NCBI GenBank assembly: GCA_964016885.1
Contig: OZ024756.1
Coordinates: forward strand, 43,524,001-43,588,000
Length of the DNA stretch: 64,000 nucleotides
Reading direction: 5' to 3'
Source: Eledone cirrhosa
Lineage: Eukaryota
Both the position numbers and the translations under genes were made by a program. The notes beneath the pieces are model-generated. The model saw only the letters and a program-made list of their open reading frames with translations. It was not told where the DNA came from and made no database searches. How positions within the stretch are numbered: position 1 is the stretch's first letter; every line of letters starts with the position of its first letter. Of this stretch, positions 9,001 through 57,987 are shown in pieces.

Positions 9001-12000
9001 ACATTGGACACACACTAGAGACAGACTTTGGACACACACTAGAGACAGACATTGGACATACACACTAGAGAGAGACATTGGACATACACACTAGAGACAG
9101 ACATTGGACACACATTAGAGACAGACATTGCACACACACTAGACAGACGTTGGACACACACTAGAAAATGACATTGGACACACACTAGAGACAGACATTG
9201 GAGACACACTAGAGACAGACATTGGACACACAATAGAGACAGACATTGGACACACACACTAGTCACAGACAACGGACACACACTAGAGACAGATATTGGA
9301 CACAAACTAGAGTCAGACATTGGACACACACTAGAGAGAGACATTGGACACACACAAGAGACAGACATTGGACACACACTAGAGACAGACATTGGACACA
9401 CACTAGAGACAGACATTGGACACACACTAGAGACATACATTGGACACACACACTAGACACAGACATCAGACACACACTAGAGACAGACATTGGACACACA
9501 CTAGAGCGAGATATTGGACACACACTCGAGACAGACATTGGACACACACTAGAGACAGACATTGGACACACACTAGGGACAGACATTGGACACACACTAG
9601 AGACAGACATTGGACACACACTAGAGACAGACATTGGACACACTCTAGAGACAGACATTGGACACACACTAGAGACAGACATTGGACACACACTAGAGAC
9701 AGACATTAGACACACACTAGAGACAGACATTGGACACACACTAGTGAGAGATATTGCAAACACACACTAGAGACACACATTGGAGACACACTAGAGACAG
9801 ACATTGGACACACACTAGAGACAGACATCGGATACACACTAGACGCAGACATCGGACACACACTAGAAACTGACATTGGACACACACTAGAGAGAGATAT
9901 TGGACACACACCAGAGAGAGACATTGGACACACACTAGAGAGAGATATTGGACACACACTAGACGCAGACATAGGACACACACTAGAAACTGACATTGGA
10001 AACACACTAGAGAGAGATATTGGACACACACTAGAGACAGACATTGTACACACACACTAGACACAGACATTGGACGCACACTAGAGACAGACATTAGACA
10101 CACACTAGAGACAGACATTGGACACACACTAGAGACTGACATTGGACACACACTAGAGACAGACATTGGACACACACTAGAGACAGACATTGGACACACA
10201 CTAGAGACAGACATTGGACACACTAGAGACAGACATTGGACACACACTAGAGACAGACATTGGACACAAACTAGAGACAGACATTGGACACACACTAGAG
10301 ACAGACATTGGACACACACTAGAGACAGACATTGGACACAAACTAGAGACAGACATTGGACACACACTAGAGACAGACATTGGACACACACTAGAGACAG
10401 ACATTAGACACACACTAGAGACAGACATTGGACACACACTAGAGAGAGACATTGGACACACACTAGAGACAGGCATTGTTCACACACTAGAGACAGACAT
10501 TGGACACACAATAGAGACAGACATAGGACACACACTAGAGACAGACATTAGACACACACTAGAGAGAGACGTTGGACACACACTAGAGACAGACATTGGA
10601 CACACACTAGAGACAGACATTGGACACACACTAGAGACAGACATTAGACACACACTAGAGACAGACGTTAGAGACACACTAGAGACAGACATTGGACACA
10701 CACTAGAGACAGACATTGGACACACACTAGAGACAGACATTGGACACACACTAGAGACAGACATTGGACACACACTAGAGACAGACATTAGACACACACT
10801 AGAGACAGACATTGGACACACACTAGAGACAAACATTGGACACACACACTAGAGAGAGACATTGGACACGCACTAGAGACAGACATTGGACACACACTAG
10901 ACAGACATTGGACACACACAAGAGACAGACATTGGACACACAATAGAGACAGACATAGGACACACACTAGAGACAGACATTAGACACACACTAGAGACAG
11001 ACATTGGACACACACTAGAGAGAGACATTGGACAAACACTAGAGACAGACATTGGACACACACTAGAGACAGACATTGGACACACACTAGAGAGAGACAT
11101 TGGACACACACTAGAGACAGACATTGGACACACACTAGAGACAGACATTGGACACACACTAGAGACAGACACTGGACACACACTAGAGACAGACATTGGA
11201 CACACACTAGAGACAGACATTGGACACACACACTGGAAACAGACATTGGACACACACACTAGAGACAGACATTGGACACACACCAGAGACAGACATTGGA
11301 TACACACTAGAGACAGACATTGGACACACACTAGAAACAAACAATGGGCACACACTAGACAGACATTGCACACACACTAGAGACAGACATTGGACACACA
11401 CTAGAGACAGACATTGGACACACACTAGGGACAGACATTGGACACATACTAGAGACAGACATTAGACACACACACCAGAGACAGACATTGGACACACACT
11501 AGAGACAGACATTGGACACACACTAGAGACAGACATTAGACACACACTAGAGACAGACATTGGACACACACTAGAGACAGACATTAGACACACACTAGAG
11601 ACATACATTGGACACACACTAGAGACAGACATTGGAGACACACTAGAGACAGACATTAGACCCACACTAGAGACAGACATTGGACACACACTAGAGACAT
11701 ACATTGGACACACACTAGAGACAGACTTTGGACACACACTAGAGACAGACATTGGACACGCACTAGAGACAGACATTGGACACACACTAGACAGACATTG
11801 CACACACACTAGAGACAGACATTGGACACACACTAGAGAGAGATATTTGACACACACACTAGAGACAGACATTGGACACACACTAGAGACAGACATTGGA
11901 CAGACACTAGAGACAGACATTGGACATACACACTAGAGACAGACATTGGACATACACACTAGAGAGAGACATTGGACATACATACTAGAGACAGACATTG

Positions 12001-15000
12001 GACACACATTAGAGACAGACATTGGACACACACTAGAGACAGACATTGGCCTCACACTAGAGACAGATATTGGACACACACACTAGAGAGAGACATTGGA
12101 CAAACACTAGAGACAGAAATTGGACACACACTAGAGACAGACATTGAACACACACTAGAGACAGACATTGGACACACACACTAGACACAGACAACGGACA
12201 CACACTAGATACAGACATTGGACACACACTAGAGAAAGATATTGGACACACACTAGAGACAGACATTGGACACACACTAGAGACAGACATTGGACACACA
12301 CACTAGACACAGACATTAGACACACACTAGAGACACAAATTGGACACACACTAGAGACAGACATTGGACACACACTAGAGACAGACATTGGACACACAGT
12401 AGAGAACAGACATTGGACACACACTAGATACAGACGTTGGACACACACTAGAGACAGACATTAGACACACACTAGAGACACACATTGGACACACACTAGA
12501 GACAGACATTGGACACACACTAGAGACAGACGTTGGACACACACTAGAGAACAGACATTGGACACAGACTAGAGACAGACATTGGACACACACTAGAGAC
12601 AGACATTAGACACACACTAGAGACAGACATTGGACACACACTAGAGACAGACATTGGACACACACTAGAGACAGACATTGGACACACACTAGAGACAGAC
12701 ATTGGACACACTAGAGACAGACATTAGACACACACTAAAGACAGACATTGGACACACACTAGAGACAGACATTGGACACACACTAGAGACAGACATTGGA
12801 CACACACTAGAGACATACATTGGACACACACTAGAGACAGACTTTGGACACACACTAGAGACAGACATTGGACACGCACTAGAGACAGACATTGGACACA
12901 CACTAGACAGACATTGGACACACACTAGAGACAGACATTGGAGACACACTAGAGACAGACATTGGACACACTAGAGACAGACATTAGACACACACTAAAG
13001 ACAGACATTGGACACATACTAGAGACAGACATTAGACACACACACCAGAGACAGACATTGGACACACACTAGAGACAGACATTGGAGACACACTAGAGAC
13101 AGACATTGGACACACTAGAGACAGACATTGGACACACACTAGAGACAGACATTAGACACACACTAGACACAGACATTGGACGCACACTAGAGACAGACAT
13201 TAGACTCACACTAAAGACAGACATTGGACACACACTAGAGACAGACATTGGACACACACTAGAGACAGACATTGGACACACACTAGAGACAGACATTGGA
13301 CACACCCTAGAGACAGACATTGGACACACTAGAGACAGACATTGGACACACACTAGGGACAGACATTAGACACACTAGAGACAGACATTGGACACACACT
13401 AGAGACATACATTGGACACACACTAGAGACAGACTTTGGACACACACTAGAGACAGACATTGGACACGCACTAGAGACAGACATTGGACACACACTAGAC
13501 AGACATTGGACACACACTAGAGACAGACATTGGACACACACTAGAGAGAGATATTGGACACACACACTAGAGACAGACATTGGACACACACTAGAGACAG
13601 ACATTGGACAGACACTAGAGACAGACATTGGACACACACTAGAGACAGACATTGGACATACACACTAGAGACAGACATTGGACACACATTAGAGACAGAC
13701 ATTGGACACACACTAGAGACAGACCTTGGACTCACACTAGAGAGAGACATTGGACACACACACTAGAGAGAGACATTGGACACGCACTAGAGACAGAAAT
13801 TGGACACACACTAGAGACAGACATTGGACACACACTAGAGACAGACATTGGACACACACACTAGACACAGACAACGGACACACACTAGATACAGACATTG
13901 GACACACACTAGAGAAAGATATTGGACACACACTAGAGACAGACATTGGACACACACTAGAGACAGACATTGGACACACACACTAGACACAGACAACGGA
14001 CACACACTAGATACAGACATTGGACACACACTAGAGAAAGATATTGGACACACACTAGAGACAGACATTGGACACACACTAGAGACAGACATTGGACACA
14101 CACACTAGACACAGACATTAGACACACACTAGAGACACAAATTGGACACACACTAGAGACAGACATTGGACACACACTAGAGACAGACATTGGACACACA
14201 GTAGAGAACAGACATTGGACACACACTAGATACAGACATTGGACACACACTAGAGACAGACATTAGACACACACTAGAGACACACATTGGACACACACTA
14301 GAGACAGACATTGGACACACACTAGAGACAGGCGTTGGACACACACTAGAGAACAGACATTGGACACACACTAGAGACAGACATTGGACACACACTAGAG
14401 ACAGACATTAGACACACACTAGAGACAGACATTGGACACACACTAGAGACAGACATTGGACACACACTAGAGACAGACATTGGACACACACTAGAGACAG
14501 ACATTGGACACACTAGAGACAGACATTAGACACACACTAAAGACAGACATTGGACACACACTAGAGACAGACATTGGACACACACTAGAGACAGACATTG
14601 GACACACACTAGAGACAGACATTGGAGACACACTAGAGACAGACATTGGACACACTAGAGACAGACATTGGACACACACTAGAGACAGACATTATACACA
14701 CACTAGAGACAGACATTGGACACACACTAGTGAGAGATATTGGAGACACACACTAGAGACAGACATTGGAGACACACTAGAGACAGACATTGGACACACA
14801 CTAGAGACAGACATCGGACACACACTAGAGACAGACATTGGACACACACTAGAGAGAGACATTGGACACACACTAGAGACAGACATTAGACACACACTAG
14901 ACACAGACATTGGACGCACACTAGAGACAGACATTAGACACACACTAAAGACAGACATTGGACACACACTAGAGACAGACATTGGACACACACTAGAGAC

Positions 15001-18000
15001 AGACATTGGACACACACTAGAGACAGACATTGGACACACACTAGAGAGAGACATTAGACACACACTAGAGACAGACATTGGACACACACTAGAGACAGAC
15101 ATTGGACACACACTAGAGACAGACATTGGACACACACTAGAGACAGACATTGGACACACACTAGAGACAGACATTGGACACACACTAGAGACAGACATTG
15201 GACACACTAGAGACAGACATTGGACACACACTAGAGACAGACATTAGACACACTAGAGACAGACATTGGACACACACTAGAGACAGACATTAGACACACA
15301 CTAGAGAGAGACATTAGACACACACTAGAGACAGACATTGGACACACACTAGAGACAGACATTGGACACACACTAGAGACAGACATTGGACACACACTAG
15401 AGACAGACATTGGACACACTAGAGACAGACATTGGACACACACTAGAGACAGACATTGGACACACACCAGAGACAGACATTGGACACACACTAGAGACAG
15501 ACATTGGACACACAATAGAGACAGACATTGGACACAAACTAGAGACACACATTGGACACACACTAGCGACAGACATTGGACACATACTAGAGACAGACAT
15601 TAGACACACACACCAGAGACAGACATTCGACACACACTAGAGACAGACATTGGACACACACTAGAGACAGACATTGGACACACTTTAGAGACAGACATTG
15701 GACACACACCAGAGACAGACATTGGACACACACTAGAGACAGACATTGGAGACACACTAGAGACAGACATTGGACACTCACTAGAGACAGACATTGGACA
15801 CACACTAGAGACAGACATTGGACACACACTAGAGACAGACATTAGACACACACTAGAGACAGACATTAGACACACACTAGAGACAGACATTGGACACACA
15901 CTAGAGACAGACATTAGACACACACTAGAGACAGACATTGGACACACACTAGAGCCAGACATTGGAGACACACTAGAGCCAGACATTAGACACACACTAG
16001 AGACAGACATTGGACACACACTAGAGACATACATTGGACACACACTAGAGACAGACTTTGGACACACACTAGAGACAGACATTGGACATACACTAGAGAC
16101 AGACTTTGGACACACACTAGAGACAGACATTGGACATACACACTAGAGAGAGATATTGGACACACACACTAGAGACAGACATTGGACACACATTAGAGAC
16201 AGACATTGGACAGACACTAGAGACAGACATTGGACAGACACTAGAGAAGACATTGGACAGACACTAGAGACAGACGTTAGACACACACTAGAGACAGACA
16301 TTGGACACACACTAGAGACAGACATTGGACACACACACTAGAGAGAGACATTGGACACGCACTAGAGACAGACATTGGACACACACTAGACAGACATTGG
16401 ACACACACTAGAGACAGACATTGGACACACACTAGAGACAGACATTGGACACACACTAGAGACAGACATTGGACACACACTAGAGACAGACATTAGACAC
16501 ACACTAGAGACAGACATTGGACACACATTAGAGACAGACATTGGAGACACACTAGAGACAGACATTAGACACACACTAGAGACAGACATTGGACATACAC
16601 ACTAGAGAGAGATATTGGACACACACACTAGAGACAGACATTGGACACACACTAGAGACAGACATTGGACACACACTAGAGACAGACTTTGGACACACAC
16701 TAGAGACAGACATTGGACACACACTAGAGACAGACATTGGACACACACTAGAGACAGACATTGGACACACACTAGAGAGAGACATTGGACACATACATAG
16801 AGACACACATTGGACACACACTAGCGACAGACATTGGACACATACTAGAGACAGACATTAGACACACACACCAGAGACAGACATTCAACACACACTAGAG
16901 ACAGACATTGGACACACACTAGAGACAGACATTGGACACACACTAGAGACAGACATTGGACACACACTAGAGACAGACATTAGACACACACACCAGAGAC
17001 AGACATTCGACACACACTAGAGAGAGACATTGGACACACACTAGAGACACACATTGGACACACACTAGCGACAGACATTGGACACATACTAGAGACAGAC
17101 ATTAGACACACACACCAGAGACAGACATTGGACACACACTAGAGACAGACATTGGACACACACTAGAGACAGACATTGGACACACACACTAGAGAGAGAC
17201 ATTGGACACGCAATAGAGACAGACATTGGACACACACTAGAGACAGACATTGGACACATACTAGAGACAGACATTGGACACACACTAGAGACAGACATTG
17301 GACACATACTAGAGACAGACATTAGACACACACTTGAGACATACATTGGACACACACTAGAGACAGACATTGGACACACACTAGAGACAGACATTGGACA
17401 CATACTAGAGACAGACATTAGACACACACTTGAGACATACATTGAACACACACTAGAGACAGACATTGGACACACACTAGAGACAGACATTGGACACACA
17501 CACTAGAGACAGACATTGGACACACACTAGACAGACATTGGACACACACTAGAGACAGACATTGGACACACACTAGAGACAGACATTAGACACACACTAG
17601 AGACAGACATTGGACACACACTAGAGACAGACATTGGAGACACACTAGAGACAGACATTAGACCCACACTAGAGACAGACATTGGACACACACTAGAGAC
17701 AGACTTTGGACACACACTAGAGACAGACATTGGACATACACACTAGAGAGAGATATTGGACACACACACTAGAGACAGACATTGGACACACACTAGAGAC
17801 AGACATTGGACACACACTAGAGACAGACTTTGGACACACACTAGAGACAGACATTGGACACACACTAGAGACAGACATTGGACACACACTAGAGACAGAC
17901 ATTGGACACACACTAGACAGACATTGGACACACACTAGAGACAGACATTGGACACACACTAGAGACAGACATTGGACACATACTAGAGACAGACATTAGA

Positions 18001-21000
18001 CACACACTAGAGACAGACATTGGACACACACCAGAGACAGACATTGGACATACACATCAGAGAGAGACATTGGATATACACACTAGAGACAGACATTGGA
18101 CACACATTAAAGACAGACATTGAACACACACTAGAGACAGACATTGGACACACACTAGAGACAGACTTTGGACACACACTAGAGACAGACATTGGAGACA
18201 CACTAGAGACAGACATTAGACACACACTAGAGACAGACATTGGACACACACTAGAGACATACATTGGACACACACTAGAGACAGACTTTGGACACCCACT
18301 AGAGACAGACATTGGACATACACACTAGAGAGAGATATTGGACACACACTAGAGACAGACATTGGACACACACTAGAGATAGACATTGGACACACACTAT
18401 AGACAGACTTTGGACACACACTAGAGACAGACATTGGATATACACACTAGAGACAGACATTGGACATACACACCAGAGAGAGACATTGGACATACACACT
18501 AGAGACAGACATTGGACACACATTAGAGACAGACATTGGACACACACTAGAGAGACATTGGACACACACTAGAGACAGACTTTGGACACACACTAGAGAC
18601 AGACATTGGAGACACACTAGAGACAGACATTAGACACGCACTAGAGACAGACATTGGACACACACTAGAGACATACATTGGACACACACTAGAGACAGAC
18701 TTTGGACACACACTAGAGACAGACATTGGACATACACACTAGAGAGAGATATTGTACACACACTAGAGACATTGGACACACACTAGATTATAGACATTGG
18801 ACACACTAGAGACAGACTTTGGACACACACTAGAGACAGACATTGGACATACACACTAGAGAGAGATATTGTACACACACTAGAGACATTGGACACACAC
18901 TAGAGATAGACATTGGACACACACTAGAGACAGACTTTGGACACACACTAGAGACAGACATTGGATATACACTAGAGACAGACATTGGACACACACTAGA
19001 GACAGACATTGGACACACTAGAGACAGACATTAGACACACACTAAAGACAGACATTGGACACACACTAGAGACAGACATTGGACACACACTAGAGACAGA
19101 CATTGGACACACACTAGAGACATACATTGGACACACACTAGAGACAGACTTTGGACACACACTAGAGACAGACATTGGACACGCACTAGAGACAGACATT
19201 GGACACACACTAGACAGACATTGGACACACACTAGAGACAGACATTGGAGACACACTAGAGACAGACATTGGACACACTAGAGACAGACATTAGACACAC
19301 ACTAAAGACAGACATTGGACACATACTAGAGACAGACATTAGACACACACACCAGAGACAGACATTGGACACACACTAGAGACAGACATTGGAGACACAC
19401 TAGAGACAGACATTGGACACACTAGAGACAGACATTGGACACACACTAGAGACAGACATTAGACACACACTAGACACAGACATTGGACGCACACTAGAGA
19501 CAGACATTAGACTCACACTAAAGACAGACATTGGACACACACTAGAGACAGACATTGGACACACACTAGAGACAGACATTGGACACACACTAGAGACAGA
19601 CATTGGACACACCCTAGAGACAGACATTGGACACACTAGAGACAGACATTGGACACACACTAGGGACAGACATTAGACACACTAGAGACAGACATTGGAC
19701 ACACACTAGAGACATACATTGGACACACACTAGAGACAGACTTTGGACACACACTAGAGACAGACATTGGACACGCACTAGAGACAGACATTGGACACAC
19801 ACTAGACAGACATTGGACACACACTAGAGACAGACATTGGACACACACTAGAGAGAGATATTGGACACACACACTAGAGACAGACATTGGACACACACTA
19901 GAGACAGACATTGGACAGACACTAGAGACAGACATTGGACACACACTAGAGACAGACATTGGACATACACACTAGAGACAGACATTGGACACACATTAGA
20001 GACAGACATTGGACACACACTAGAGACAGACCTTGGACTCACACTAGAGAGAGACATTGGACACACACACTAGAGAGAGACATTGGACACGCACTAGAGA
20101 CAGAAATTGGACACACACTAGAGACAGACATTGGACACACACTAGAGACAGACATTGGACACACACACTAGACACAGACAACGGACACACACTAGATACA
20201 GACATTGGACACACACTAGAGAAAGATATTGGACACACACTAGAGACAGACATTGGACACACACTAGAGACAGACATTGGACACACACACTAGACACAGA
20301 CAACGGACACACACTAGATACAGACATTGGACACACACTAGAGAAAGATATTGGACACACACTAGAGACAGACATTGGACACACACTAGAGACAGACATT
20401 GGACACACACACTAGACACAGACATTAGACACACACTAGAGACACAAATTGGACACACACTAGAGACAGACATTGGACACACACTAGAGACAGACATTGG
20501 ACACACAGTAGAGAACAGACATTGGACACACACTAGATACAGACATTGGACACACACTAGAGACAGACATTAGACACACACTAGAGACACACATTGGACA
20601 CACACTAGAGACAGACATTGGACACACACTAGAGACAGGCGTTGGACACACACTAGAGAACAGACATTGGACACACACTAGAGACAGACATTGGACACAC
20701 ACTAGAGACAGACATTAGACACACACTAGAGACAGACATTGGACACACACTAGAGACAGACATTGGACACACACTAGAGACAGACATTGGACACACACTA
20801 GAGACAGACATTGGACACACTAGAGACAGACATTAGACACACACTAAAGACAGACATTGGACACACACTAGAGACAGACATTGGACACACACTAGAGACA
20901 GACATTGGACACACACTAGAGACAGACATTGGAGACACACTAGAGACAGACATTGGACACACTAGAGACAGACATTGGACACACACTAGAGACAGACATT

Positions 21001-24000
21001 ATACACACACTAGAGACAGACATTGGACACACACTAGTGAGAGATATTGGAGACACACACTAGAGACAGACATTGGAGACACACTAGAGACAGACATTGG
21101 ACACACACTAGAGACAGACATCGGACACACACTAGAGACAGACATTGGACACACACTAGAGAGAGACATTGGACACACACTAGAGACAGACATTAGACAC
21201 ACACTAGACACAGACATTGGACGCACACTAGAGACAGACATTAGACACACACTAAAGACAGACATTGGACACACACTAGAGACAGACATTGGACACACAC
21301 TAGAGACAGACATTGGACACACACTAGAGACAGACATTGGACACACACTAGAGAGAGACATTAGACACACACTAGAGACAGACATTGGACACACACTAGA
21401 GACAGACATTGGACACACACTAGAGACAGACATTGGACACACACTAGAGACAGACATTGGACACACACTAGAGACAGACATTGGACACACACTAGAGACA
21501 GACATTGGACACACTAGAGACAGACATTGGACACACACTAGAGACAGACATTAGACACACTAGAGACAGACATTGGACACACACTAGAGACAGACATTAG
21601 ACACACACTAGAGAGAGACATTAGACACACACTAGAGACAGACATTGGACACACACTAGAGACAGACATTGGACACACACTAGAGACAGACATTGGACAC
21701 ACACTAGAGACAGACATTGGACACACTAGAGACAGACATTGGACACACACTAGAGACAGACATTGGACACACACCAGAGACAGACATTGGACACACACTA
21801 GAGACAGACATTGGACACACAATAGAGACAGACATTGGACACAAACTAGAGACACACATTGGACACACACTAGCGACAGACATTGGACACATACTAGAGA
21901 CAGACATTAGACACACACACCAGAGACAGACATTCGACACACACTAGAGACAGACATTGGACACACACTAGAGACAGACATTGGACACACTTTAGAGACA
22001 GACATTGGACACACACCAGAGACAGACATTGGACACACACTAGAGACAGACATTGGAGACACACTAGAGACAGACATTGGACACTCACTAGAGACAGACA
22101 TTGGACACACACTAGAGACAGACATTGGACACACACTAGAGACAGACATTAGACACACACTAGAGACAGACATTAGACACACACTAGAGACAGACATTGG
22201 ACACACACTAGAGACAGACATTAGACACACACTAGAGACAGACATTGGACACACACTAGAGCCAGACATTGGAGACACACTAGAGCCAGACATTAGACAC
22301 ACACTAGAGACAGACATTGGACACACACTAGAGACATACATTGGACACACACTAGAGACAGACTTTGGACACACACTAGAGACAGACATTGGACATACAC
22401 TAGAGACAGACTTTGGACACACACTAGAGACAGACATTGGACATACACACTAGAGAGAGATATTGGACACACACACTAGAGACAGACATTGGACACACAT
22501 TAGAGACAGACATTGGACAGACACTAGAGACAGACATTGGACAGACACTAGAGAAGACATTGGACAGACACTAGAGACAGACGTTAGACACACACTAGAG
22601 ACAGACATTGGACACACACTAGAGACAGACATTGGACACACACACTAGAGAGAGACATTGGACACGCACTAGAGACAGACATTGGACACACACTAGACAG
22701 ACATTGGACACACACTAGAGACAGACATTGGACACACACTAGAGACAGACATTGGACACACACTAGAGACAGACATTGGACACACACTAGAGACAGACAT
22801 TAGACACACACTAGAGACAGACATTGGACACACATTAGAGACAGACATTGGAGACACACTAGAGACAGACATTAGACACACACTAGAGACAGACATTGGA
22901 CATACACACTAGAGAGAGATATTGGACACACACACTAGAGACAGACATTGGACACACACTAGAGACAGACATTGGACACACACTAGAGACAGACTTTGGA
23001 CACACACTAGAGACAGACATTGGACACACACTAGAGACAGACATTGGACACACACTAGAGACAGACATTGGACACACACTAGAGAGAGACATTGGACACA
23101 TACATAGAGACACACATTGGACACACACTAGCGACAGACATTGGACACATACTAGAGACAGACATTAGACACACACACCAGAGACAGACATTCAACACAC
23201 ACTAGAGACAGACATTGGACACACACTAGAGACAGACATTGGACACACACTAGAGACAGACATTGGACACACACTAGAGACAGACATTAGACACACACAC
23301 CAGAGACAGACATTCGACACACACTAGAGAGAGACATTGGACACACACTAGAGACACACATTGGACACACACTAGCGACAGACATTGGACACATACTAGA
23401 GACAGACATTAGACACACACACCAGAGACAGACATTGGACACACACTAGAGACAGACATTGGACACACACTAGAGACAGACATTGGACACACACACTAGA
23501 GAGAGACATTGGACACGCAATAGAGACAGACATTGGACACACACTAGAGACAGACATTGGACACATACTAGAGACAGACATTGGACACACACTAGAGACA
23601 GACATTGGACACATACTAGAGACAGACATTAGACACACACTTGAGACATACATTGGACACACACTAGAGACAGACATTGGACACACACTAGAGACAGACA
23701 TTGGACACATACTAGAGACAGACATTAGACACACACTTGAGACATACATTGAACACACACTAGAGACAGACATTGGACACACACTAGAGACAGACATTGG
23801 ACACACACACTAGAGACAGACATTGGACACACACTAGACAGACATTGGACACACACTAGAGACAGACATTGGACACACACTAGAGACAGACATTAGACAC
23901 ACACTAGAGACAGACATTGGACACACACTAGAGACAGACATTGGAGACACACTAGAGACAGACATTAGACCCACACTAGAGACAGACATTGGACACACAC

Positions 24001-25410
24001 TAGAGACAGACTTTGGACACACACTAGAGACAGACATTGGACATACACACTAGAGAGAGATATTGGACACACACACTAGAGACAGACATTGGACACACAC
24101 TAGAGACAGACATTGGACACACACTAGAGACAGACTTTGGACACACACTAGAGACAGACATTGGACACACACTAGAGACAGACATTGGACACACACTAGA
24201 GACAGACATTGGACACACACTAGACAGACATTGGACACACACTAGAGACAGACATTGGACACACACTAGAGACAGACATTGGACACATACTAGAGACAGA
24301 CATTAGACACACACTAGAGACAGACATTGGACACACACCAGAGACAGACATTGGACATACACATCAGAGAGAGACATTGGATATACACACTAGAGACAGA
24401 CATTGGACACACATTAAAGACAGACATTGAACACACACTAGAGACAGACATTGGACACACACTAGAGACAGACTTTGGACACACACTAGAGACAGACATT
24501 GGAGACACACTAGAGACAGACATTAGACACACACTAGAGACAGACATTGGACACACACTAGAGACATACATTGGACACACACTAGAGACAGACTTTGGAC
24601 ACCCACTAGAGACAGACATTGGACATACACACTAGAGAGAGATATTGGACACACACTAGAGACAGACATTGGACACACACTAGAGATAGACATTGGACAC
24701 ACACTATAGACAGACTTTGGACACACACTAGAGACAGACATTGGATATACACACTAGAGACAGACATTGGACATACACACCAGAGAGAGACATTGGACAT
24801 ACACACTAGAGACAGACATTGGACACACATTAGAGACAGACATTGGACACACACTAGAGAGACATTGGACACACACTAGAGACAGACTTTGGACACACAC
24901 TAGAGACAGACATTGGAGACACACTAGAGACAGACATTAGACACGCACTAGAGACAGACATTGGACACACACTAGAGACATACATTGGACACACACTAGA
25001 GACAGACTTTGGACACACACTAGAGACAGACATTGGACATACACACTAGAGAGAGATATTGTACACACACTAGAGACATTGGACACACACTAGATTATAG
25101 ACATTGGACACACTAGAGACAGACTTTGGACACACACTAGAGACAGACATTGGACATACACACTAGAGAGAGATATTGTACACACACTAGAGACATTGGA
25201 CACACACTAGAGATAGACATTGGACACACACTAGAGACAGACTTTGGACACACACTAGAGACAGACATTGGATATACACACTAGAGAGAGACATTGGACA
25301 CACATTAGAGACAGACATTGAACACACACTAGAGACAGACATTGGACACACACTAGAGATAGACATTGGATATACACACTAGAGACAGACATTGGACACA
25401 CACTAGAGAG
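1..25410. repeat. 24-bp tandem satellite (consensus CATTGGACACACACTAGAGACAGA), roughly 1,000 units, running off the left edge
   Basis: Directly visible tandem unit. 22/26-bp variants arise from CA-number slippage. All ORFs here are translations of the repeat (LETDIGHT/MSVSSVCP). Confidence 0.98.
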
Positions 25411-25492
25411 AAACATAACACTGACACAAAGCCTCACACACACAATATAGAGAAGGATACACAGAAAGACAGAGGACACATCACATTACGCA

Positions 25493-26410
25493 AACACATA
25501 CACACATACACACACATATATACATACATACACACACATGCAAACAGTCATACATACAAATACACACAGATATACATATATACACACATATACAAACAGT
25601 CATACATACATACACACATATATACATACATACACATACAAACAGTGATACATACACATACAAAAAGTCATACATACATACACACACATACAAACAGTCA
25701 TACATACACATGCACACAGATATACATTCATACACACACATACAAACAGTCATACATACACATACACACAGATATACATACATACACATACAGTCATACA
25801 TACACATACACAGATATACATACATACACATACAGTCATACATACACATACAAACAGTCATACATACATACACACACATACAAACAGTCATACTTACACA
25901 TACACACATATATACATACATACACATACAAACAGTCATACATACACATACACACAGATATACATACATACACACACATACACACACATACAGACATACA
26001 TACATACAAACAGTCATACATACACACATATATACATACATACACACACATACACGTATATACATACATACACACACATACAAACAGTCATACATACACA
26101 TACACACATATATACATACATACACATACACACAGATATACATATATACACATACAAACAGTCATACATACACATACACACATATATACATACATACACA
26201 CACATACAAACAGTCATACATACACATACACACAGATATACATACATACACATACAAAGTCATACATACACATACAAACAGTCATACATACATACACACA
26301 CATACAAACAGTCATACATACACATACACAGAGATACATACATACACACACATACAAACAGTCACCCATACACATACACACAGATACATACATGTGCACA
26401 CATATATATA
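25493..26410. repeat. Compound ACAT/AC-rich micro/minisatellite (recurrent CATACAAACAGTCATACATA)
   Basis: Low-complexity repeat between the satellite and exon A1; a shorter paralog lies at about 34150-34295. Confidence 0.9.
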
Positions 26411-26500
26411 TAATATAGATAACATTAAAAACAATAAGTATTTCTAACTGAAATGAAACAACAAAAGTGATGACTAATGAGAAAATGGAATAAAACTTAC

Positions 26501-26827
26501 TTTTTACAGACTTTGGTGACGATATATTCGTATTTGCTGCACAATGAAAATGTGTTGCCTCTTCGCAATTAGGGTTATTTTTCCAACACTGAAACTCTCC
26601 TTTCCATCCCTTATTTGCTGGTATTTTACAGTCAAAACCAGGTGTAACTAGTCCTCTCTGAAATACTTTTGTATCTTTGTCGTAATTCAATTGTAAAACT
26701 TGAGTTCCATTTCGTAGGAGTTTCAACACATTTATCCTAGTTAAGTCACCATTTACCTTACATGTTATATTTATTCTAGCTGATGATCCAACTTGAAATT
26801 CAGGTGTTATAGATTCGATATATATAT
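26501..26827 (-). CDS. Exon A1: V/I-set-like Ig domain, 327 nt
   Basis: Acceptor ...ttccatattttatatacag| and donor |gtaagt. Protein ...INITCKVNGD..LKLLRNG...FDC...QCW..PNCEEATHFHC. B- and F-strand-like Cys about 73 aa apart. Confidence 0.85.
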
Positions 26828-26982
26828 CTGTATATAAAATATGGAAGAGGAGAAAATGTTTAGACAAAGATTTATTTAAAATATAACATATATAATGGCG
26901 GGTAGAGAATAACTAAGACGGACAAGAAATCAATAATAGAAAAACTAGAGAAATACAGTTGTGAATGATAGAAGAAGAAAAA

Positions 26983-27045
26983 GCAGCAGCAGCGGCAGCA
27001 GCAGCAGCAGCAGCGGCGGCGGCGGCGGCGGCAGCGGCAGCGGCA

Positions 27046-27099
<54 letters not shown>

Positions 27100-27117
27100 G
27101 AAGCAGCAGCAGCAGCA
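26983..27117. repeat. (CAG)n/(CGG)n compound trinucleotide microsatellite, intronic
   Basis: Directly visible. Confidence 0.95.
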
Positions 27118-27317
27118 TGTAGACATGAATAAGTATGTATTTCAAACATTAACATATCTCACATGGAAACATACAATCATGTATATATACAAACATGTAT
27201 TGATAGAGGCAGACATATATTTAAAAATATGGAATCTCTCTCATCTAATATGCCCAATCTCAATTTTTTCAAATTCCATCCCACCCGTCCCCTCAATCTA
27301 TTTTCTTTCTCATTCTT

Positions 27318-27353
27318 TCTTTTGATGAAGGACTAGCGTCCGAAACGTTAAGA
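27318..27353 (+). ncRNA. Minimal hammerhead-ribozyme-like motif (Penelope type, C3U variant)
   Basis: TCTT-TTGATGA-A-GGAC-tagc-GTCC-GAAA-CG-TT-AAGA: stem I TCTT/AAGA, stem II GGAC/GTCC, palindromic stem III (AACGTT). Confidence 0.6.
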
Positions 27354-27437
27354 CCCTCTTCCTGCTATATCAAGTCTTAACCTAATATATACCTTCCATA
27401 TACTGTACCGATTGTGTGGTTATTTCTGTTTACCTTT

Positions 27438-27445
<8 letters not shown>

Positions 27446-27508
<63 letters not shown>
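27446..27508. repeat. (TA)n microsatellite
   Basis: Directly visible. Confidence 0.95.
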
Positions 27509-27515
<7 letters not shown>

Positions 27516-27554
27516 CACAGAAAGGTAATACATAAAAGAAAATATTTTGCTTAC

Positions 27555-27869
27555 ATCTATCTGTAGGGTTGAATACAAAGCCAAGTTTCATTTTAAATGC
27601 TGAACAGGTGATGGTTATATTGGGGTAGTCTTCAATTGTTACGTTGTAGGCAAACTGTGACTCTAATGAAACATAACAATTGTTAGTTTTTGGAATCTTC
27701 ACAGATTTTTGACTGACTTCTGTTTCATTACTTCCATGTGTTACACTCCATCTAAACAGGACAGTCTCTTCAGCATTTGGGACAATATTTAAATGACATC
27801 TGAAGGTAGATATCTCATTACGTATGTGGTTCTCAGTGTCAGACGTCAGAGTATCCATTGAAGATTTCA
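27555..27869 (-). CDS. Exon B1: C-type (C2/C1-like) Ig domain, 315 nt
   Basis: Acceptor ...ttttatcttttcag| and donor |gtaagc. Protein STFRCHL...VLFRWSV...NNCYVSLESQFAYNVT.EDYPNITITCSA shows the Cys-Trp-Cys pattern; several N-x-T sequons. Confidence 0.85.
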
Positions 27870-27898
27870 CTGAAAAGATAAAATGTTAAATAAATAAT

Positions 27899-28197
27899 TG
27901 TTTCTACTTTTGCACAACGCCATCAAATATCCAATGTATTACTGGTACTTTATTTTATCGACCCTGTAAGGATGAAAGGCAAAGTTAACCTCAGCGGGAT
28001 TTGAACTCAGATCATAAAGGGCCGTATAAATAATTGTTTCTACTTTAGGCACAAGGCCAGCAATTACCCAGTGCATTACTTGTACTTTATTTTATCGACC
28101 CTGTAAGGATGAAAGGCAAAGTTAACCTCGGCGGGATTTGAACTCAGACTGTAAAGGGACGTAACTATGCTAGAAAGCATGGCTTCGGAAGGGCCGT
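27899..28197 (-). mobile_element. Two tandem 5'-truncated tRNA-derived SINE copies (Nin/Deu-core-like)
   Basis: On the minus strand: B-box GAGTTCAAATCC followed by GCCTTTCATCCTTACAGGGTCGATAAAATAAAGTAC, twice. ATAAATAAT occurs at 27890, 28026 and 28198. Absent from the paralogous intron at about 54470-54500. Confidence 0.7.
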
Positions 28198-28229
28198 ATA
28201 AATAATGAAATGAAATCTTGGCTGCTTTC

Positions 28230-29840
28230 ATTGATACAAACAACTAAAATGTTGAATGGGGAGGTTGCTTCTGATAGGACACTCTGGAAGGCATGTGTGA
28301 GGACTCTGCCCTAACAATACTCTCATGTTGAGGAAGAGAAGAAAATCACCCAAATATTTTGTGACACAGAAGCAGGGTAAATGCAATGAGGAACAAGATG
28401 TATATGACAATAACTACACACCCGCTAATGACACCCAATCCAACAAAGGGGTCAGTTCTACAACTCAGCAGTGACATAGTAAGACAATTAAGGATACGAA
28501 GACAGACAAATCAAGTGGACTACCGGGCTTAGTTGTTTAGATGCTGAAAGCATCTTGGATGGTAGGTTACATCATAATGAACTGTATCATAAACCAAGTA
28601 ATACAAAGTAATGTCATACCTAATGACTGGTGTAGCTGGAGCATTGACAACTACTACATAAGCAAAGGAGAGGCTCTAGACAGAGAACAATATAGAGGTA
28701 ACAAGTTGAGGAACCAGGTCATGAAACTTACAGAAAGAGTTATCATGTAGCTGATTAGGGATCAAATTAAACCAAAGGGGATACAGTTCAGATTTATGCC
28801 AGGTAAACATACCACTGATGTCCTCTTCTTTGTGAGGCAAATGCAAGTAAAGTACCTAGCTAAACATAAGCCCCTCTACATGGCATTTGTTGACCTGAAG
28901 AAAGTATTTTACAAAGTCCTCCATTTCATAATCTGGTGGGCTGTTAGAAAACTAGGGGTAAATGAGAGACTTCTGAGGGTGGTATAAGCCATGTATTAAC
29001 AATTATTATAGTGAGGAATTTAGTGTGTAAATGTGGGTTCTTCAAGGGTCTGTTCATAGCCCTCTCGTTTATTATTATCTTGCAGGCTTTAACAGAATAG
29101 TTTAAGACTGACTGCCCATGGGAAATCCTATATGCTGATTATCTAACCCTCATTAGCTGAAATTATGGCAGAAATAGAGAACAAATTCATGCTCTAGAAG
29201 TAAATGGTCATAAAGTCAACTAGGCAAAGACTAACTTACTAGTAATTAGAAAGGAAAGACTAAACTTTTAGTAATTAGAAAGGAAAACAAGGCCCTGATA
29301 GCTTTGGGGAGCAGTCTTGCTTAATGTACAGGAGATGATTGAGTAGAAATTCTATCCTGTGTTCCAAATGATGACTATAGGTATACAAGTGATGTAATAT
29401 GATCTCAGACAGCCTAACAAAGATGTAGGTTTTATAAGTGGTTGATAAATAGGAGCAGTTAACAGTAAGGGCTCAACGGAAAACAGGCTCTATTAGATAG
29501 TCAGAGGACTTCATAGAAGTAGTTGATAGCTTCTGTTACCTGCATGTGTTTGATGGCTGTGCAATAATAGTGTGCATGCAGGGCAAAGCATCAATGAACT
29601 GTGAGAAAACTGGGTATATAGGGTGCAGGTACAGTGTAGAGGAGAGGAGATTGCAGTGGTATGGACAGGTAAAGTGCATAGTGGCTGACAGCTGTGAAAA
29701 ATGTGCAGGGTGCTCAAAGTTGATGGAAGTTATGGAAGAGGAAATCTTAGGATGAAGTGATAAAAGCTAACCTTGGACATTTATAACTCTGAAAGGAAAT
29801 GAAGCAGGATCAACATCTCTGACGTAGCAGAAGACCTACC
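28230..29840 (+). pseudogene. Old degraded RTE-clade LINE (RT remnants)
   Basis: Fragments MLKAS..IPNDWC, MAFVDLKKVF, CPWEILYADY are colinear with the young RTE ORF; many stops and frameshifts. Confidence 0.85.
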
Positions 29841-29847
29841 TTACAAT

Positions 29848-32800
29848 TACACACACTAGAGACAGACATTGGACACACACTAGAGACAGACATTGGTCAC
29901 ACCCTAGAGACAGACATTGGACACACACTAGAGACAGACATTAGACACACACTAGAGACAGACATTGGACACACACTAGAGACAGACATTGGACACACAC
30001 TAGAGACAGACATTGGACACACACTAGAGACAGACATTGGACACACACCAGAGACAGACATTGGACACACACTAGAGACAGACATTGGACACACACTAGA
30101 GACAGACATTGGACACACACTAGAGACAGACATTGGACACACACTAGAGACAGACATTGGACACACAGTAGAGACAGACATTAGACACACACTAGAGACA
30201 GACATTGGACACACACTAGAGACAGACATTGGACACACAGTAGACAGACATTGAACACACACTAGAGACAAACATTGGACACACACTAGAGACAGACATT
30301 GGACACACACACTAGAGACAGACATTAGACACACACTAGAGACAGACATTGAACACACACACTAGAGACAGACATTGGACACACACTAGAGAGAGACATT
30401 GGACACACACTAGAGACAGACATTGGACACACACTAGAGACAGACATTGGACACACACTAGAGACAGACATTGGACACACAGTAGACAGACATTGAACAC
30501 ACACTAGAGACAAACATTGGACACACACTAGAGACAGACATTGGACACACACACTAGAGACAGACATTAGACACACACTAGAGACAGACATTGAACACAC
30601 ACACTAGAGACAGACATTGGACACACACTAGAGAGAGACATTGGACACACACTAGAGACAGACATTGGACACACACTAGACACAGACATTGGGCACACAC
30701 ACTAAAGACAGACATTGGACACACACACTAGAGATAGACATTGGACACACACTAGAGACAGACATTGGACACACACTAGACAGACATTGGACACACATTA
30801 GAGACAGACATTAGACACACTAGAGAGAGACATTAGACACACACTAGAGACAGACATTGGACACACACTAGAGACAAACATTGGACACACATTAGAGACA
30901 GACATTGGACACACTGGAGAGAGACATTGGACACACACTAGAGACAGACATTGGATACACACTAGAGACAGACATTAGACACACACTAGACAGACATTGG
31001 ACACACATTAGAGACAGACATTGAACACACTGGAGAGAGACATTGGACACACACTAGAGACAGACATTAGACACACACTAGAGACAGACATTGGACACAC
31101 ACTAGAGACAGACATTGGAGACACATAGAGACAGACATTAGACACACACTAGAGACAGACATTGGACACACACTAGAGACAGACATTGGACACACACACT
31201 AGAGACAGACATTGGACACACACTAGAGACAGACATTAGACACACACTAGAGACAGACATTGGACACACACTAGAGACAGACATTGGACACACACTAGAG
31301 ACAGACATTGGAGACACATAGAGACAGACATTAGACACACACTAGAGACAGACATTGGACACACACTAGAGACAGACATTGGACACACACACTAGAGACA
31401 GACATTGGACACACACTAGAGACAGACATTGGGCACACACACTAAAGACAGACATTGGACACACACACTAGAGACAGACATTGGACACACACACTAAAGA
31501 CAGACATTGGGGACACACTAGAGACAAACATTGGACACACATTAGAGACAGACATTGGACACACACTAGTGAGAGATATTGGAGACACACACTAGAGACA
31601 GACATTGGAGACACACTAGAGACAGACATTGGACACACACTAGAGACAGACATCGGACACACACTAGAGACAGACATTGGACACACACTAGAGAGAGACA
31701 TTGGACACACACTAGAGACAGACATTGGACACACTAGAGAGAGACATTGGACACACACTTGAGACAGACATTGGACACACTAGAGAGAGACATTGGACAC
31801 ACACTAGAGACAGATATTGGACACACACTAGAGACAGACATTGGGCACACACACTAAAGACAGACATTGGACACACACACTAGAGACAGACATTGGACAC
31901 ACTAGAGAGAGACATTGGACACACACTAGAGACAGACATTGGACACACACTAGAGACAGACATCGGGCACACACACTAAAGACAGACATTGGACACACAC
32001 ACTAGAGACAAACATTGGACACACAGTAGAGACAGACATTGTACACACACTAGAGACAAACATTGGACACACATTAGAGACAGACATTGGACACACACTA
32101 GAGACAAACATTGGACACACACTAGAGACAGACATTGGACACACTAGAGAGAGACATTGGACACACACTAGAGACAGACATTGGACACACACTAGAGACA
32201 GACATTGGGCACACACACTAAAGACAGACATTGGACACACACACTAGAGACAGACATTGGACACACACACTAAAGACAGACATTGGACACACACTAGAGA
32301 CAAACATTGGACACACATTAGAGACAGACATTGGACACACACTAGAGACAAACATTGGACACACATTAGAGACAGACATTGGACACACATTAGAGACAGA
32401 CATTGGACACACTAGAGAGAGACATTGGACACACACTAGAGACAGGCATTGGACACACACTAGAGACAAACATTGGACACACATTAGAGACAGACATTGG
32501 ACACACACTAGAGACAAACATTGGACACACACTAGAGACAGACATTGGACACACTAGAGAGAGACATTGGACACACACTAGAGACAAACATTGGACACAC
32601 ACTAGAGACAGACATTGGACACACTAGAGAGAGACATTGGACACACACTAGAGACAAACATTGGACACACACTAGAGACAGACATTGGACACACACTAGA
32701 GACAGACATTGGACACACTAGAGAGAGACATTGGACACACACTAGAGACAGACATTGGACACACTAGAGAGAGACATTGGACACACACTTGAGACAGACA

Positions 32801-33840
32801 TTAGACACACACTAGAGACAGACATTAGATACACACTAGAGACAGACATTAGACACACACTAGAGACAGACATTGGACATACACTAGAGACAGACATTGG
32901 ACACACACTAGAGACAGAAATTAGACACACACTAGAGACAGACATTGGACACACACTAGAGACAGACATTGGACACACACTAGAGACAGACATTGGACAC
33001 ACACTAGAGACAGACATTGGACACACACACTAGAGACAGACATTGGACACACACACTAGAGACAGACATTGGACACACACTAGAGACAGACATTGGACAC
33101 CCACTAGAGACAGACATTGGACACACACTAGAGACAGACATTAGACACACACTAGAGACAAACATTGGACACACACTAGAGACAGACATTGGACACACAC
33201 TAGAGACAGACATTGGACACACACTAGAGACAGACATTGGACACACACACTAGAGACAGACATTGGACACACACTAGAGACAGAAATTGGACACACACTA
33301 GAGACAGACATTGGACACACACTAGAGACAGACATTGGACACACTAGAGACAGACATTAGACACACACTAGAGACAGACATTAGACACACACTAGAGACA
33401 GACATTGGACACACACTAGAGACAGACATTGGACACACACTAGAGACAGACATTGGACACACACACTAGAGACAGACATTGGACACACACACTAGAGACA
33501 GACATTGGACACACACTAGAGACAGACATTGGACACACACTAGAGACAGACATTGGACACACACTAGAGACAGACATTGGACACACTAGAGACAGACATT
33601 AGACACACACTAGAGACAGACATTAGACACACACTAGAGACAGACATTGGACACACACTAGAGACAGACATTGGACACACACTAGAGACAGACATTGGAC
33701 ACACACACTAGAGACAGACATTGGACACACACACTAGAGAGAGATATTGGACACACACACTAGAGACAGACATTGGACACACACTAGAGACAGACATTGG
33801 ACACACACTAGAGACTGACATTGGACACACACACTAAAGA
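29848..33840. repeat. Second array of the 24-bp satellite (about 4 kb)
   Basis: Same unit as 1-25410, at the homologous intron position relative to an A exon. Confidence 0.98.
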
Positions 33841-34381
33841 GAAACATAACACTGACACAAAGACTCACACACACACTATAGAGAAACATTACATTACACA
33901 CACGCACTAGAGAGAGACGTTACATACACACACTATAGAGAAACATTACATTACACACACACACTAGAGGGAGATATTGGACACACACACACTATAGTGA
34001 AACATTACATTACACATACATACTATAGAGAAACATTACGCACATAAACACGCAAAACTTTACATTTCATATACACACTATAGTGATATAATACACACAC
34101 ACAATATAGAGAAAGATACACACAAAGACAGAGGAAACATTACATTACGCAGACACATACACACATATATACATACATACACACACATACAAACAGTCAT
34201 ACATACACATACACACAGATATACATACATACACACACATACAAACATTCACACATACACACATACATACATGTGCACACACATATATATATAATATAGA
34301 TAACATTAAAAACAATAAGTATTTCTAACTGAAATGAAACAACAAAAGTGATGACTAATGAGAAAATGGAATAAAACTTAC

Positions 34382-34708
34382 TTTTTACAGACTTTGGTGG
34401 GGATTTACCCATATTTGTGGTACACTGAAAATTTGTTGCATCTTCGCAATTAGGGTTATTTTTCCAACACTGATACTCTCCATTCCATCCCTTACTTGCT
34501 GGTATTTTACAGTCAAAACCAGGTGTAACTACTCCTCTCTGAAATACTTTTGTATCTTTGTTGTAATTCAATTGTAAAACCTGAGTTCCATTTCGTAGGA
34601 GTCTCAAGACAGTTACCAGATTTAAGTGACTAATTGCCTTACATGTTATCAATATTCTAGCTGATGATCCAACTTGAAATTCAGGTGTTATAGATTTGAT
34701 ATATATAT
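34382..34708 (-). CDS. Exon A2: V/I-set-like Ig domain, 327 nt
   Basis: Same acceptor and donor as A1. Protein DIYIKSITPEFQVGSSARILITCKAISHLNLVTVLRLLRNG...CEDATNFQCTTNMGKSPPKSVK is open. Confidence 0.85.
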
Positions 34709-38100: not shown

Positions 38101-38571
38101 ATCCGCTAATCCCACACAGTCCCAGCGTGCATCTAAGATCCCGTTCCAGTCGCCCACTAACACTAAAGAGCGGGACGTTCCAAGAAAGGTCTCCAGACGC
38201 CGGAAGAAATCAGGCCGCCCTGCTCCTGTCGGGGCATAGACGGCCACTAACCTGAAAGCTTGCCCGTCTCCGCTGGTCACGTCCAGCACCACCAGCTTAC
38301 CCTCTGGGTCCAGGAAGATGGCCCGTATGGCGAGATCCACACCTCTCCGAAAAAGCACAGCAACTCCTCCACCGGATCCAGGACGGCTGGGAGATGCGTA
38401 CACATCGTAGCCGCCGAAGATCGGTGCGAAGGCCCGTGCTTCGGAGATTCTGGTCTCGCTGATGGCCACTACATCTATGTTTAGTGACCTGAGGTCGTTG
38501 AGCAGGTGACCCTGCTTCCATGACGACCCCAAGCCACGCGCATTTATGCTGCCTATTCTGAGTGAGGTCAT
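35152..38571 (-). CDS. ORF2: APE endonuclease + reverse transcriptase + C-terminal zinc finger, interrupted by one in-frame TGA at 36307-36309
   Basis: APE motifs SINARGL, AISET, VYAP, GDWN, YLDR, TDH. RT motifs PGLDGL, FRPITLLN, DQSKAFD, RQGCPLS, YADD. Zinc finger CPRC..ETVLHALVQC. The 754-aa and 371-aa ORFs are in the same frame (LLGV*FG). Confidence 0.92.
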
Positions 38572-38606
38572 GTTTAAAATAGAGTGGAAAAGATGGGAAA
38601 GACCAC

Positions 38607-53009: not shown

Positions 53010-53094
53010 TCATGCATATATACACACATGCATGTATTGATAGAGGCAGACATGTATTTAAAAATATGGAACCCCTCTCATCTATACATGAACA

Positions 53095-54139: not shown

Positions 54140-54454
54140 TTTTCCCTGTAATAGAGACTAGAGAGTCAAGTTTCATTTTCAATACTGAACAGGTGATGGT
54201 TATATTGGGGTAGTCTTCAATTGTTACACTGTAGTCAAACTGTGACTCTAATGAAACATAACATTTGTTAATTTTTGGAACTGGCACAGTTTTTTGGCTG
54301 ACTTCTGTTTCGTTACTTCCACGTGTTACACTCCATTTAAACAGGACATTCTCTTCAGAATTTGGGACAAAATTTAAATGACATCTGAAGGTAGATATCT
54401 GGTTAATTTTGTGGTTCTTAGTGTCAGACATCAGATCTTTCAGAGCAGATTTAG
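54140..54454 (-). CDS. Exon B2: C-type Ig domain, 315 nt
   Basis: Acceptor ...ttttatcttttcag| and donor |gtaagc. Open paralog of B1 (STFRCHLNFVPN..LFKWSV..NKCY..NITITCSV). Confidence 0.85.
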
Positions 54455-57660: not shown

Positions 57661-57987
57661 CTTTTACAGTCTTCAAGATTGACTCATCACCAGGACTTGT
57701 ATAACATTGATAATTTGTTGCATCATTGCAATTAGGCTTATTTTTCCAGCAGTGATACTCTCCATTCTCTCTCTCAACTGCTGTTATTTTACAGTCAAAA
57801 CCAGGTGGTAATATTCCTTTGTCATATTTATTTGTAATTGGGTTGTGAGACATTTTTATAAAAATTGACCCATTTTTAAGGACACTCAAGATATTTGGCC
57901 AACTTGTGTCATCAGTTAATTTACAAATTATATTTAATCTAGATGATGATCCAACTTCAAATTCAGGTGTTATATTTAGTGATACCC
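57661..57987 (-). CDS. Exon A3: more divergent V/I-set-like Ig domain, 327 nt
   Basis: Acceptor ...ttccatattttatatatag| and donor |gtaagt. All five Cys conserved (IIC, FDC, HCW, PNC, YQC); open frame. Confidence 0.85.

Follow-up and report, generated by a model that had tools for sequence, protein, structure and literature searches.

The closest described counterpart of the locus studied here is the CEACAM family: the relevant passages of PMC2832619 describe a single gene with an immunoreceptor tyrosine-based inhibitory motif (ITIM) and a switch motif of the immunoreceptor tyrosine-based kind (ITSM), and glycosylphosphatidylinositol (GPI)-linked forms that arise from stops in membrane exons, and those of PMC8860441 describe gene conversion of the N domain under pathogen pressure. 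We analysed a 64,000-nt window of the Eledone cirrhosa genome (contig OZ024756.1, positions 43,524,001 to 43,588,000), whose minus strand carries five exons, A3, B2, A2, B1 and A1, all of them open, of phase 1-1 and bounded by AG/GT; the A exons encode variable-type (V) and the B exons constant-type (C) immunoglobulin (Ig) domains. To our knowledge, the immune and self-recognition receptors of cephalopods are almost unknown. We give an even chance to the reading that A1 and A2 are positively selected V-type domains in a CEACAM-like octopod cluster, which would consist of a predicted inhibitory receptor and tail-less relatives that likely serve as pathogen decoys. We favour it because a gene with ITIM and ITSM, paralogues with broken membrane exons, and V conversion under selection together make up the CEACAM pattern. 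The exons of the window and the two most divergent regions of A1 are the following.

26501..26827, minus strand: exon A1, V-type Ig domain, predicted domain 5 of gene d (327 nt, AG/GT, phase 1-1, open, five Cys)
26730..26756, minus strand: codons 24-32 of A1, BC loop, equivalent to complementarity-determining region (CDR) 1; 8 of 9 residues unlike A2
26517..26552, minus strand: codons 92-103 of A1, F strand plus FG loop, equivalent to CDR3; eight residues unlike A2
27555..27869, minus strand: exon B1, constant-type Ig domain, predicted domain 4 of gene d (phase 1-1, three Cys)
34382..34708, minus strand: exon A2, V-type Ig domain, predicted domain 3 of gene d (327 nt, AG/GT, phase 1-1, open)
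54140..54454, minus strand: exon B2, constant-type Ig domain, predicted domain 2 of gene d (phase 1-1)
57661..57987, minus strand: exon A3, divergent V-type Ig domain, predicted domain 1 of gene d (43% amino acid identity to A1)

A1 and A2 encode different amino acids in 25 of 108 whole codons, in agreement with the initial annotation of this stretch (about 25 of 109 residues). Counted as NG86 steps, the pair is separated by 28.5 nonsynonymous and 4.5 synonymous changes, the latter close to the three to four noticed before; the proportions of nonsynonymous and synonymous differences (pN and pS) are 0.113 and 0.062, and dN/dS is 1.9. The differences are clustered, with 8 of 9 at codons 24-32 and 8 of 13 at codons 92-104 (best-window permutation test, P 0.002 for 9 and 0.004 for 12 amino acids), and the claim that the changes gather near the first and last Cys thus holds. 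Although the pairwise dN/dS is above 1, the nonsynonymous excess of the A1/A2 pair alone is not significant (Fisher P 0.09-0.20). The diversifying selection that had been proposed is supported by the family-wide site models described below, but it is not demonstrable from these two exons.

The fold of the V domain was predicted by AlphaFold from an alignment of 16 A exons. The model is a nine-strand sandwich with C' and C'' strands (predicted local distance difference test (pLDDT) 86; strands 2-10, 16-23, 33-38, 41-49, 54-60, 64-67, 77-83, 91-97 and 105-107), and its best structural matches are the V domains of VHH antibodies, T-cell receptors and PD-1 (Z 10-10.8, root-mean-square deviation ~2.5, 92-101 residues aligned). 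According to the model strands, codons 24-32 form the BC, 50-53 the C'C'' and 98-104 the FG loop, so that the V-like fold suspected earlier is borne out by the model and the two clusters of A1/A2 differences coincide with the BC and F/FG regions. C22 and C95, the B-F pair, are invariant in 16 of 16 V exons, D89 is nearly invariant and the pattern C-x-D..Y-x-C is invariant in the alignment, in keeping with the D-x-x-x-Y-x-C motif of V-set-like domains; Leu stands where the C strand of V-set domains has Trp. The B exons were modelled as a seven-strand constant-type sandwich with a B-F Cys pair and a C-strand Trp (pLDDT 91). Their fold-search matches are generic Ig-like folds, including VCAM1 and SIRP-gamma, which do not resolve the C1 from the C2 set.

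Pfam gave no match for A1-A3 or B1 and a V-set match in one of 22 homologues (E 0.021), the A1 profile matched PDB sequences only at E>1, and no likeness was detectable between the A and B profiles. When the profile of the 22 homologues was compared with PDB sequences, rabbit kappa light chains came first (E 7e-5), and no CEACAM was among the best 60 of 82 matches. Five Cys are present in 16 of 16 intact V exons, including an extra D-E pair and one Cys in the EF loop, and three in 14 of 15 intact C exons (four in the remaining one), which therefore leaves one spare Cys in each domain. These residues, V Cys87 and C Cys64, align with Cys80 in the EF loop of the rabbit kappa V domain and with Cys171 of its C domain, which form a V-C interdomain disulfide, as the pertinent part of PMC10038998 describes. 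A Cys87-Cys64 disulfide may thus staple each V-C pair of the octopus proteins. Unlike rabbit kappa chains, the octopus family is membrane-bound and germline-encoded, without V(D)J parts. It is also without FGxG, which we take to be the G-strand motif. The resemblance is likely convergent, and the matching V-C cysteine pair would be a case of structural convergence.

Selection was studied in the 10 closest of the 16 intact V exons and the 10 closest of the 15 C exons. We compared our own codon models M2a and M1a under two frequency models, and also with separate trees for each segment. In these young exons pN exceeded pS in 45 of 45 V pairs and 42 of 45 C pairs (118 of 120 and 102 of 105, respectively, when all intact exons were paired), and the V means were 0.117 for pN, 0.063 for pS and 0.05 for the divergence of the upstream intron. 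M2a was preferred over M1a with likelihood-ratio test (LRT) values of 35.7 and 56.0 for V and 32.4 and 39.4 for C exons; partitioned by segment, the values were 19.7 and 33.0 (V) and 21.7 and 30.5 (C). We also ran 40 simulations under neutrality, with rate patches and hidden breakpoints included, and none came up to the observed omega of 2.33 or LRT of 29.6 (maxima 1.78 and 11.9). These results support positive selection across the young V exons.

Naive empirical Bayes assigned V codons 4, 11, 25, 30, 46, 53, 59, 71, 92 and 99-101 to the selected class. Most of them lie in the BC, C'C'', DE and FG loops (surface position was judged from secondary structure), which by analogy would form the membrane-distal end. 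The three CDR-equivalent loops, 20 codons in all, contain 36 of the 92 minimal nonsynonymous changes (P 5e-5). The comparison with CDR1 and CDR3 made at the outset thus stands for the BC and FG loops but is too narrow, as the C'C'' (CDR2-equivalent) and DE loops and the constant-type B exons vary too. Selected sites in the C exons are 3, 35, 53, 55, 57 and 100-103, with 53, 55 and 57 alternating along one strand. Since the B exons are selected as strongly as the V exons (overall omega 2.6-3.1), the pattern is not only CDR-like. GC-biased conversion was considered as a cause and rejected, because synonymous AT-to-GC changes are depleted and not enriched.

Genome searches returned 17 V and 16 C matches, every one at 42.56-43.70 Mb of the same contig (C17), and a divergent homologue used as query found this cluster and nothing elsewhere in the genome. 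The contig is 44.7 Mb long and ends 1.1 Mb from the window. We profiled 1.06 Mb of DNA (42.40-42.80 and 43.124-43.788 Mb), 50 kb beyond it, and 11 of the ~32 ten-kb stretches of the interval between the two parts, all 11 of which were satellite. The profiles identified 17 V exons (one broken) and 17 C exons (one broken, one damaged). Twelve leader exons, identical in six genes, and 13 membrane-type exons partition this 1.25-Mb tandem cluster into 13 units, a to m, one of them without its V exon; unit f was joined across ~495 kb and a gap and is uncertain, and no leader was found for unit b (gap).

The exons of the window belong to unit d, whose leader exon (43596.6 kb), last C exon (43441.2 kb) and truncated membrane exon (43439.9 kb) lie outside the window. 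From leader to membrane exon the order is A3-B2-A2-B1-A1-B. Since no other leader, membrane exon or assembly gap was found in between, A1, A2 and A3 are predicted to be domains 5, 3 and 1 of a single gene with the layout leader-(V-C)x3. That A1 and A2 are alleles or haplotigs was rejected, because a single leader and a single membrane exon enclose the two, with no assembly gap. Dscam-like cassettes were rejected as well: V and C exons alternate, and each unit has its own leader and membrane exons.

A few structural peculiarities were seen in other units. Genes a and b (43639.7-43709.4 kb) form an inverted duplication, head to head, that surrounds an assembly gap; they alone have a short stalk exon, and gene b has two tandem membrane-type exons. 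The first V exons of genes f and e carry a 39-nt internal duplication, which adds 13 N-terminal residues, and their 5' end resembles the A3 type, making them chimeric exons.

Among the 13 units, only gene a, on the plus strand, has a full cytoplasmic tail. Of the exons that encode this tail, the first is of NxxY type, the next is rich in proline and contains LHYAEL and TLYAE, and the last ends in S-S-V, which we take to be a PDZ-type motif. The membrane span is followed by ITIM and ITSM consensus motifs as given in PMC2832619. The ITIM-bearing exon has a single match in the whole genome. LHYAEL was found in E. cirrhosa, O. sinensis and cuttlefish; the ITSM reads TDYAVI in cuttlefish and depends in gene a of E. 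cirrhosa on splicing at the exon end. All other units are shorter. In genes i, k, l and m the membrane exon stays in frame and a single short tail exon follows (tails were read for one exon); genes b and c have a frameshift immediately past the membrane span, and genes d-h a variant membrane exon in which a stop or a shift in a T run lets the protein end in a hydrophobic stretch. The T run is 7, 8 or 9 bases long across six copies of the membrane exon. We regard the truncated tails as real because the 8-T form recurs in contigs from one short-read sample, although gene d's 7-T form was not seen there. The 8-T and 9-T forms show by eye a GPI-like pattern of small-residue site, spacer and terminal hydrophobic stretch, and the truncated tails may be GPI signals or inert anchors.

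The initial annotation had noted about 90 nt of identical intron past the A1 and A2 donors, which we measured as 104 nt. The intron segments and satellite arrays concerned are the following.

26397..26500, minus strand: intron after the A1 donor, 104 nt, identical to 34278-34381
34278..34381, minus strand: intron after the A2 donor, identical to 26397-26500, 104 nt
1..25416: array of a ~24-bp satellite that fills the post-A1 intron and continues ~83 kb past the window to the next C exon
29849..33832: the same 24-bp satellite in the post-A2 intron, 165 copies

The identity extends into the last 18 nt of the exons. On the acceptor side the two introns are not identical: 6 of the 100 positions preceding the exon differ, which equals pS. 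As the first 60 aligned post-donor columns are without substitution in ten young V exons and the leader exons of six genes are identical, we regard the identical intron as a homogenised tract. It leads into the shared satellite, which fills the downstream intron of 6 of the 16 V exons, among them A1 and A2. In the cluster as a whole, ~0.7-0.8 Mb consist of this one 24-bp satellite (42.75-43.55 Mb), located in introns of 7 to ~495 kb after the V exons of genes d, e and f. Conversion also runs inside the V exons: sites close together are less incompatible than others (P 0.002), and the nearest neighbour of an exon changes along its length, A1 resembling the third domain of gene f (f_D3) over three quarters of its length and e_D3 in the last. 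V pS is not below the divergence of the upstream intron. Gene conversion, raised earlier as a possible explanation of the whole pattern, is thus real and accounts for the identical intron, yet it does not remove the dN excess. The V exon of gene a belongs to the exchanging young group (pS 0.026-0.106 and pN 0.09-0.19 to the V exons of genes d-g) and its C exon does not (pS 0.11-0.17, pN 0.29-0.32). This is a trait of paired receptors, in that the ligand domain of the receptor groups with the V exons of its paralogues and its C domain does not.

Among 1.84 billion proteins searched with a profile, 36 matched. Of 30 whose names were checked, 28 are Octopus or Argonauta proteins with names that give no function, and two are unnamed. 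Three layouts occur: leader-V-C with a GPI-like end, a series of V-C units, and a membrane span joined to a tyrosine tail. The uncharacterised LOC115221679 family of Octopus, Argonauta and cuttlefish comprises direct homologues with leader, V, C, stalk, membrane exon and tail, clustered on a single chromosome in three Octopus assemblies; in contrast, E. cirrhosa has its own young expansion, genes with (V-C)x2-3 and satellite-filled introns. A word-based homologue search with A1 among longer proteins gave none in 32 candidates. With the tail as query, we found a cuttlefish relative (P0052, HH probability 96.8) that has two ITIM-consensus motifs, one ITSM and both spare Cys; since these are kept, the founder gene is, judged by its motifs, a coleoid receptor of inhibitory type. 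The Octopus proteins P0040, P0041 and P0008 are identical in 99-100 of 101 C-domain positions, and the V comparisons gave 59 of 98, 64 of 103 and 92 of 99. Repeated V-C units with Thr-rich linkers occur in the O. vulgaris gene models P0003, P0004 and P0046, and (V-C)n chains therefore arose more than once or are older. The main texts of the literature searched neither describe the family nor mention six of its LOC identifiers, although supplementary tables and subscription papers might, and it does not appear in the mollusc and cephalopod passages of a 2026 review of invertebrate diversification (PMC13428168). The family is apparently a previously undescribed one of coleoids.

How closely does this cluster follow CEACAM? 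As far as the parts of the two CEACAM papers go, both families are tandem arrays with one ITIM/ITSM founder (CEACAM1 among GPI-linked and secreted paralogues), a V domain first and C-type domains behind it, paralogues whose membrane exon carries a stop or frameshift, and V conversion together with positive selection. They differ in that the octopus repeat unit is a V-C pair and not an N plus A/B domains, that the C domains are also selected, that no ITAM (immunoreceptor tyrosine-based activation motif) member was seen, that the sequence comparisons gave no homology between the two families, and that the host is a mollusc and not a vertebrate. The CEACAM N domain is cysteine-free, unlike the octopus V domain with its five Cys.

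If the genes are expressed and spliced as modelled, the receptor of gene a would damp haemocyte or epithelial responses via SHP-type phosphatases. Microbes or parasites may bind the tip of this receptor, and new loop variants would therefore be favoured. The tail-less relatives could act as decoys against pathogen ligands, and loop variants would be distributed through gene conversion and through unequal crossing-over that the intronic satellite would promote. If the decoy reading is true, molluscs evolved on their own the CEACAM solution, namely receptor and decoys, conversion, and GPI forms that stem from broken membrane exons. The cluster provides a testable candidate, namely a conserved, predicted inhibitory receptor, its fast-evolving relatives and named selected loops, in a family that is missed by Pfam and unnamed in databases.

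Several observations weigh against a receptor with decoys. No RNA sequencing run containing the window stretch was found, and three matching runs cover introns and so are DNA. No ITAM-type activating partner was seen, although no systematic search for one was made; no activating type was seen among the 13 membrane exons, of which one has a Lys and several have Asn in degenerate spans. The PDZ-type end of the gene a tail also fits junctional or neural adhesion, and the truncated membrane exons could be products of decay, given the T runs of 7, 8 or 9, two broken exons and a unit without V. On the side of selection, whole-exon omega above 1 is borderline for V under the GY-F3x4 model (P 0.057), as are the tree-free V counts of 92:19 (P 0.008-0.13). 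The minimal synonymous changes gather in the three loops too (8 of 19), and the contrast between loops and core is therefore partly due to older or converted tracts and plain tolerance. Finally, the synonymous deficit is mainly one of the AT-to-GC class (4 of 42, with 33% expected, and 3 of 43), other classes being compatible with neutrality.

A possible but doubtful alternative is a locus for allorecognition or self-recognition, in which a V tip binds solely to a V tip that matches it, and such a match triggers the ITIM/ITSM receptor, restraining rejection or sucker attachment. This has been proposed for Hydractinia Alr, which, in the sections of PMC9546547 that concern it, is likewise an invertebrate cluster of divergent V-first Ig superfamily genes that have ITIMs and a Cys in the EF loop for which an interdomain disulfide is predicted. 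A self cue on octopus skin halts sucker attachment (PMC9339708, in a passage citing Nesher 2014), and the variation of the octopus family sits at membrane-distal loops. However, the divergence was measured between paralogues of one assembly and not between alleles, the C domains are also selected, there is no Fn3-like domain as in Alr, and a single signalling gene that exchanges V sequence with tail-less copies suits decoys better. If allorecognition were true, the cluster would be a first molecular handle on octopus self recognition. Rather unlikely is a broader version, in which the family is an ancient coleoid germline-diversified system of self/non-self recognition: an ITIM-ITSM checkpoint receptor, stapled light-chain-like V-C modules, and three CDR-equivalent loops reshuffled by conversion from a satellite-driven array of donors and decoys would together give individual-specific recognition, making this a candidate allorecognition or skin self-cue locus. 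Molluscan FREPs, amphioxus VCBPs and arthropod Dscam, as treated in the corresponding passages of PMC13428168, are also diversified Ig-domain recognition molecules of invertebrates. No fibrinogen or chitin-binding exon was found by homology to full-length relatives, and unlike Dscam the cluster has no alternative-exon array, each V being paired with a C in separate gene units. We conclude that the family works like known ITIM-receptor clusters and, by the tests applied, is not a member of CEACAM, Alr, FREP, VCBP or Dscam.

We consider it unlikely that the proteins are a neuronal wiring or adhesion code, in which two-Ig GPI-linked and membrane proteins pair via their V domains and label neurons or sucker sensory cells. 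Dpr/DIP and Beat/Side are such systems of wiring and adhesion. The two-Ig architecture, the GPI-like or PDZ-ended tails, and Atlas neighbours that include CADM and fasciclin-3-like clusters would fit. Wiring codes are, however, usually conserved between close species, and the octopus family shows strong recent positive selection, birth-and-death and lineage-specific subfamilies, and has retained ITIM and ITSM in cuttlefish and octopods.

It is very unlikely that the pattern has no adaptive cause, with relaxed or dying duplicates, conversion beside the satellite, and an AT bias that lowers synonymous change together producing a false omega above 1. The non-significant A1/A2 test, the truncated tails and broken exons, the recombination inside V exons and the class-specific synonymous deficit would be expected in this case. 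This explanation is already disfavoured by the neutral simulations, none of which matched the data, and it sits poorly with the conserved Cys (five in every intact V exon, three in all but one intact C exon), with canonical splice sites, and with a pS that matches intron divergence at a pN twice as high. Highly improbable, finally, is a protein of reproductive recognition (on sperm, the spermatophore or the egg surface) whose divergence is due to sexual selection; it would explain rapid amino acid change over whole ectodomains, GPI-like tails and a weak Izumo-Ig match in one of 22 homologues (E 0.0019) but not the inhibitory tail of the founder gene.

Several further repeats lie in the window. 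Exon B2 is bracketed by a 1.7-kb inverted repeat (50427-52137 and 54663-56373 of the window, 99.7% identical), which consists of two copies of a fragment of a long interspersed nuclear element (LINE) with reverse transcriptase (RT) and PHD-finger sequence; the resulting stem could promote exon skipping, back-splicing or A-to-I editing. The B2-A2 intron contains a near full-length retrotransposon without long terminal repeats (35155-40760, minus strand) with an ORF1-like frame of 717 aa, an endonuclease-RT frame of 819 aa and a zf-RVT frame of 384 aa, the last two separated by a stop. A minisatellite of ~46 bp occupies 9 kb (41246-50138), and related copies lie between the C and membrane exons of other units. 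GIY-YIG-like frames at 52931-53611 (plus strand) and 61264-61971 (minus strand), of which only the first has a Pfam match, a weak one (E 0.0002), are probably remains of Penelope-type elements.

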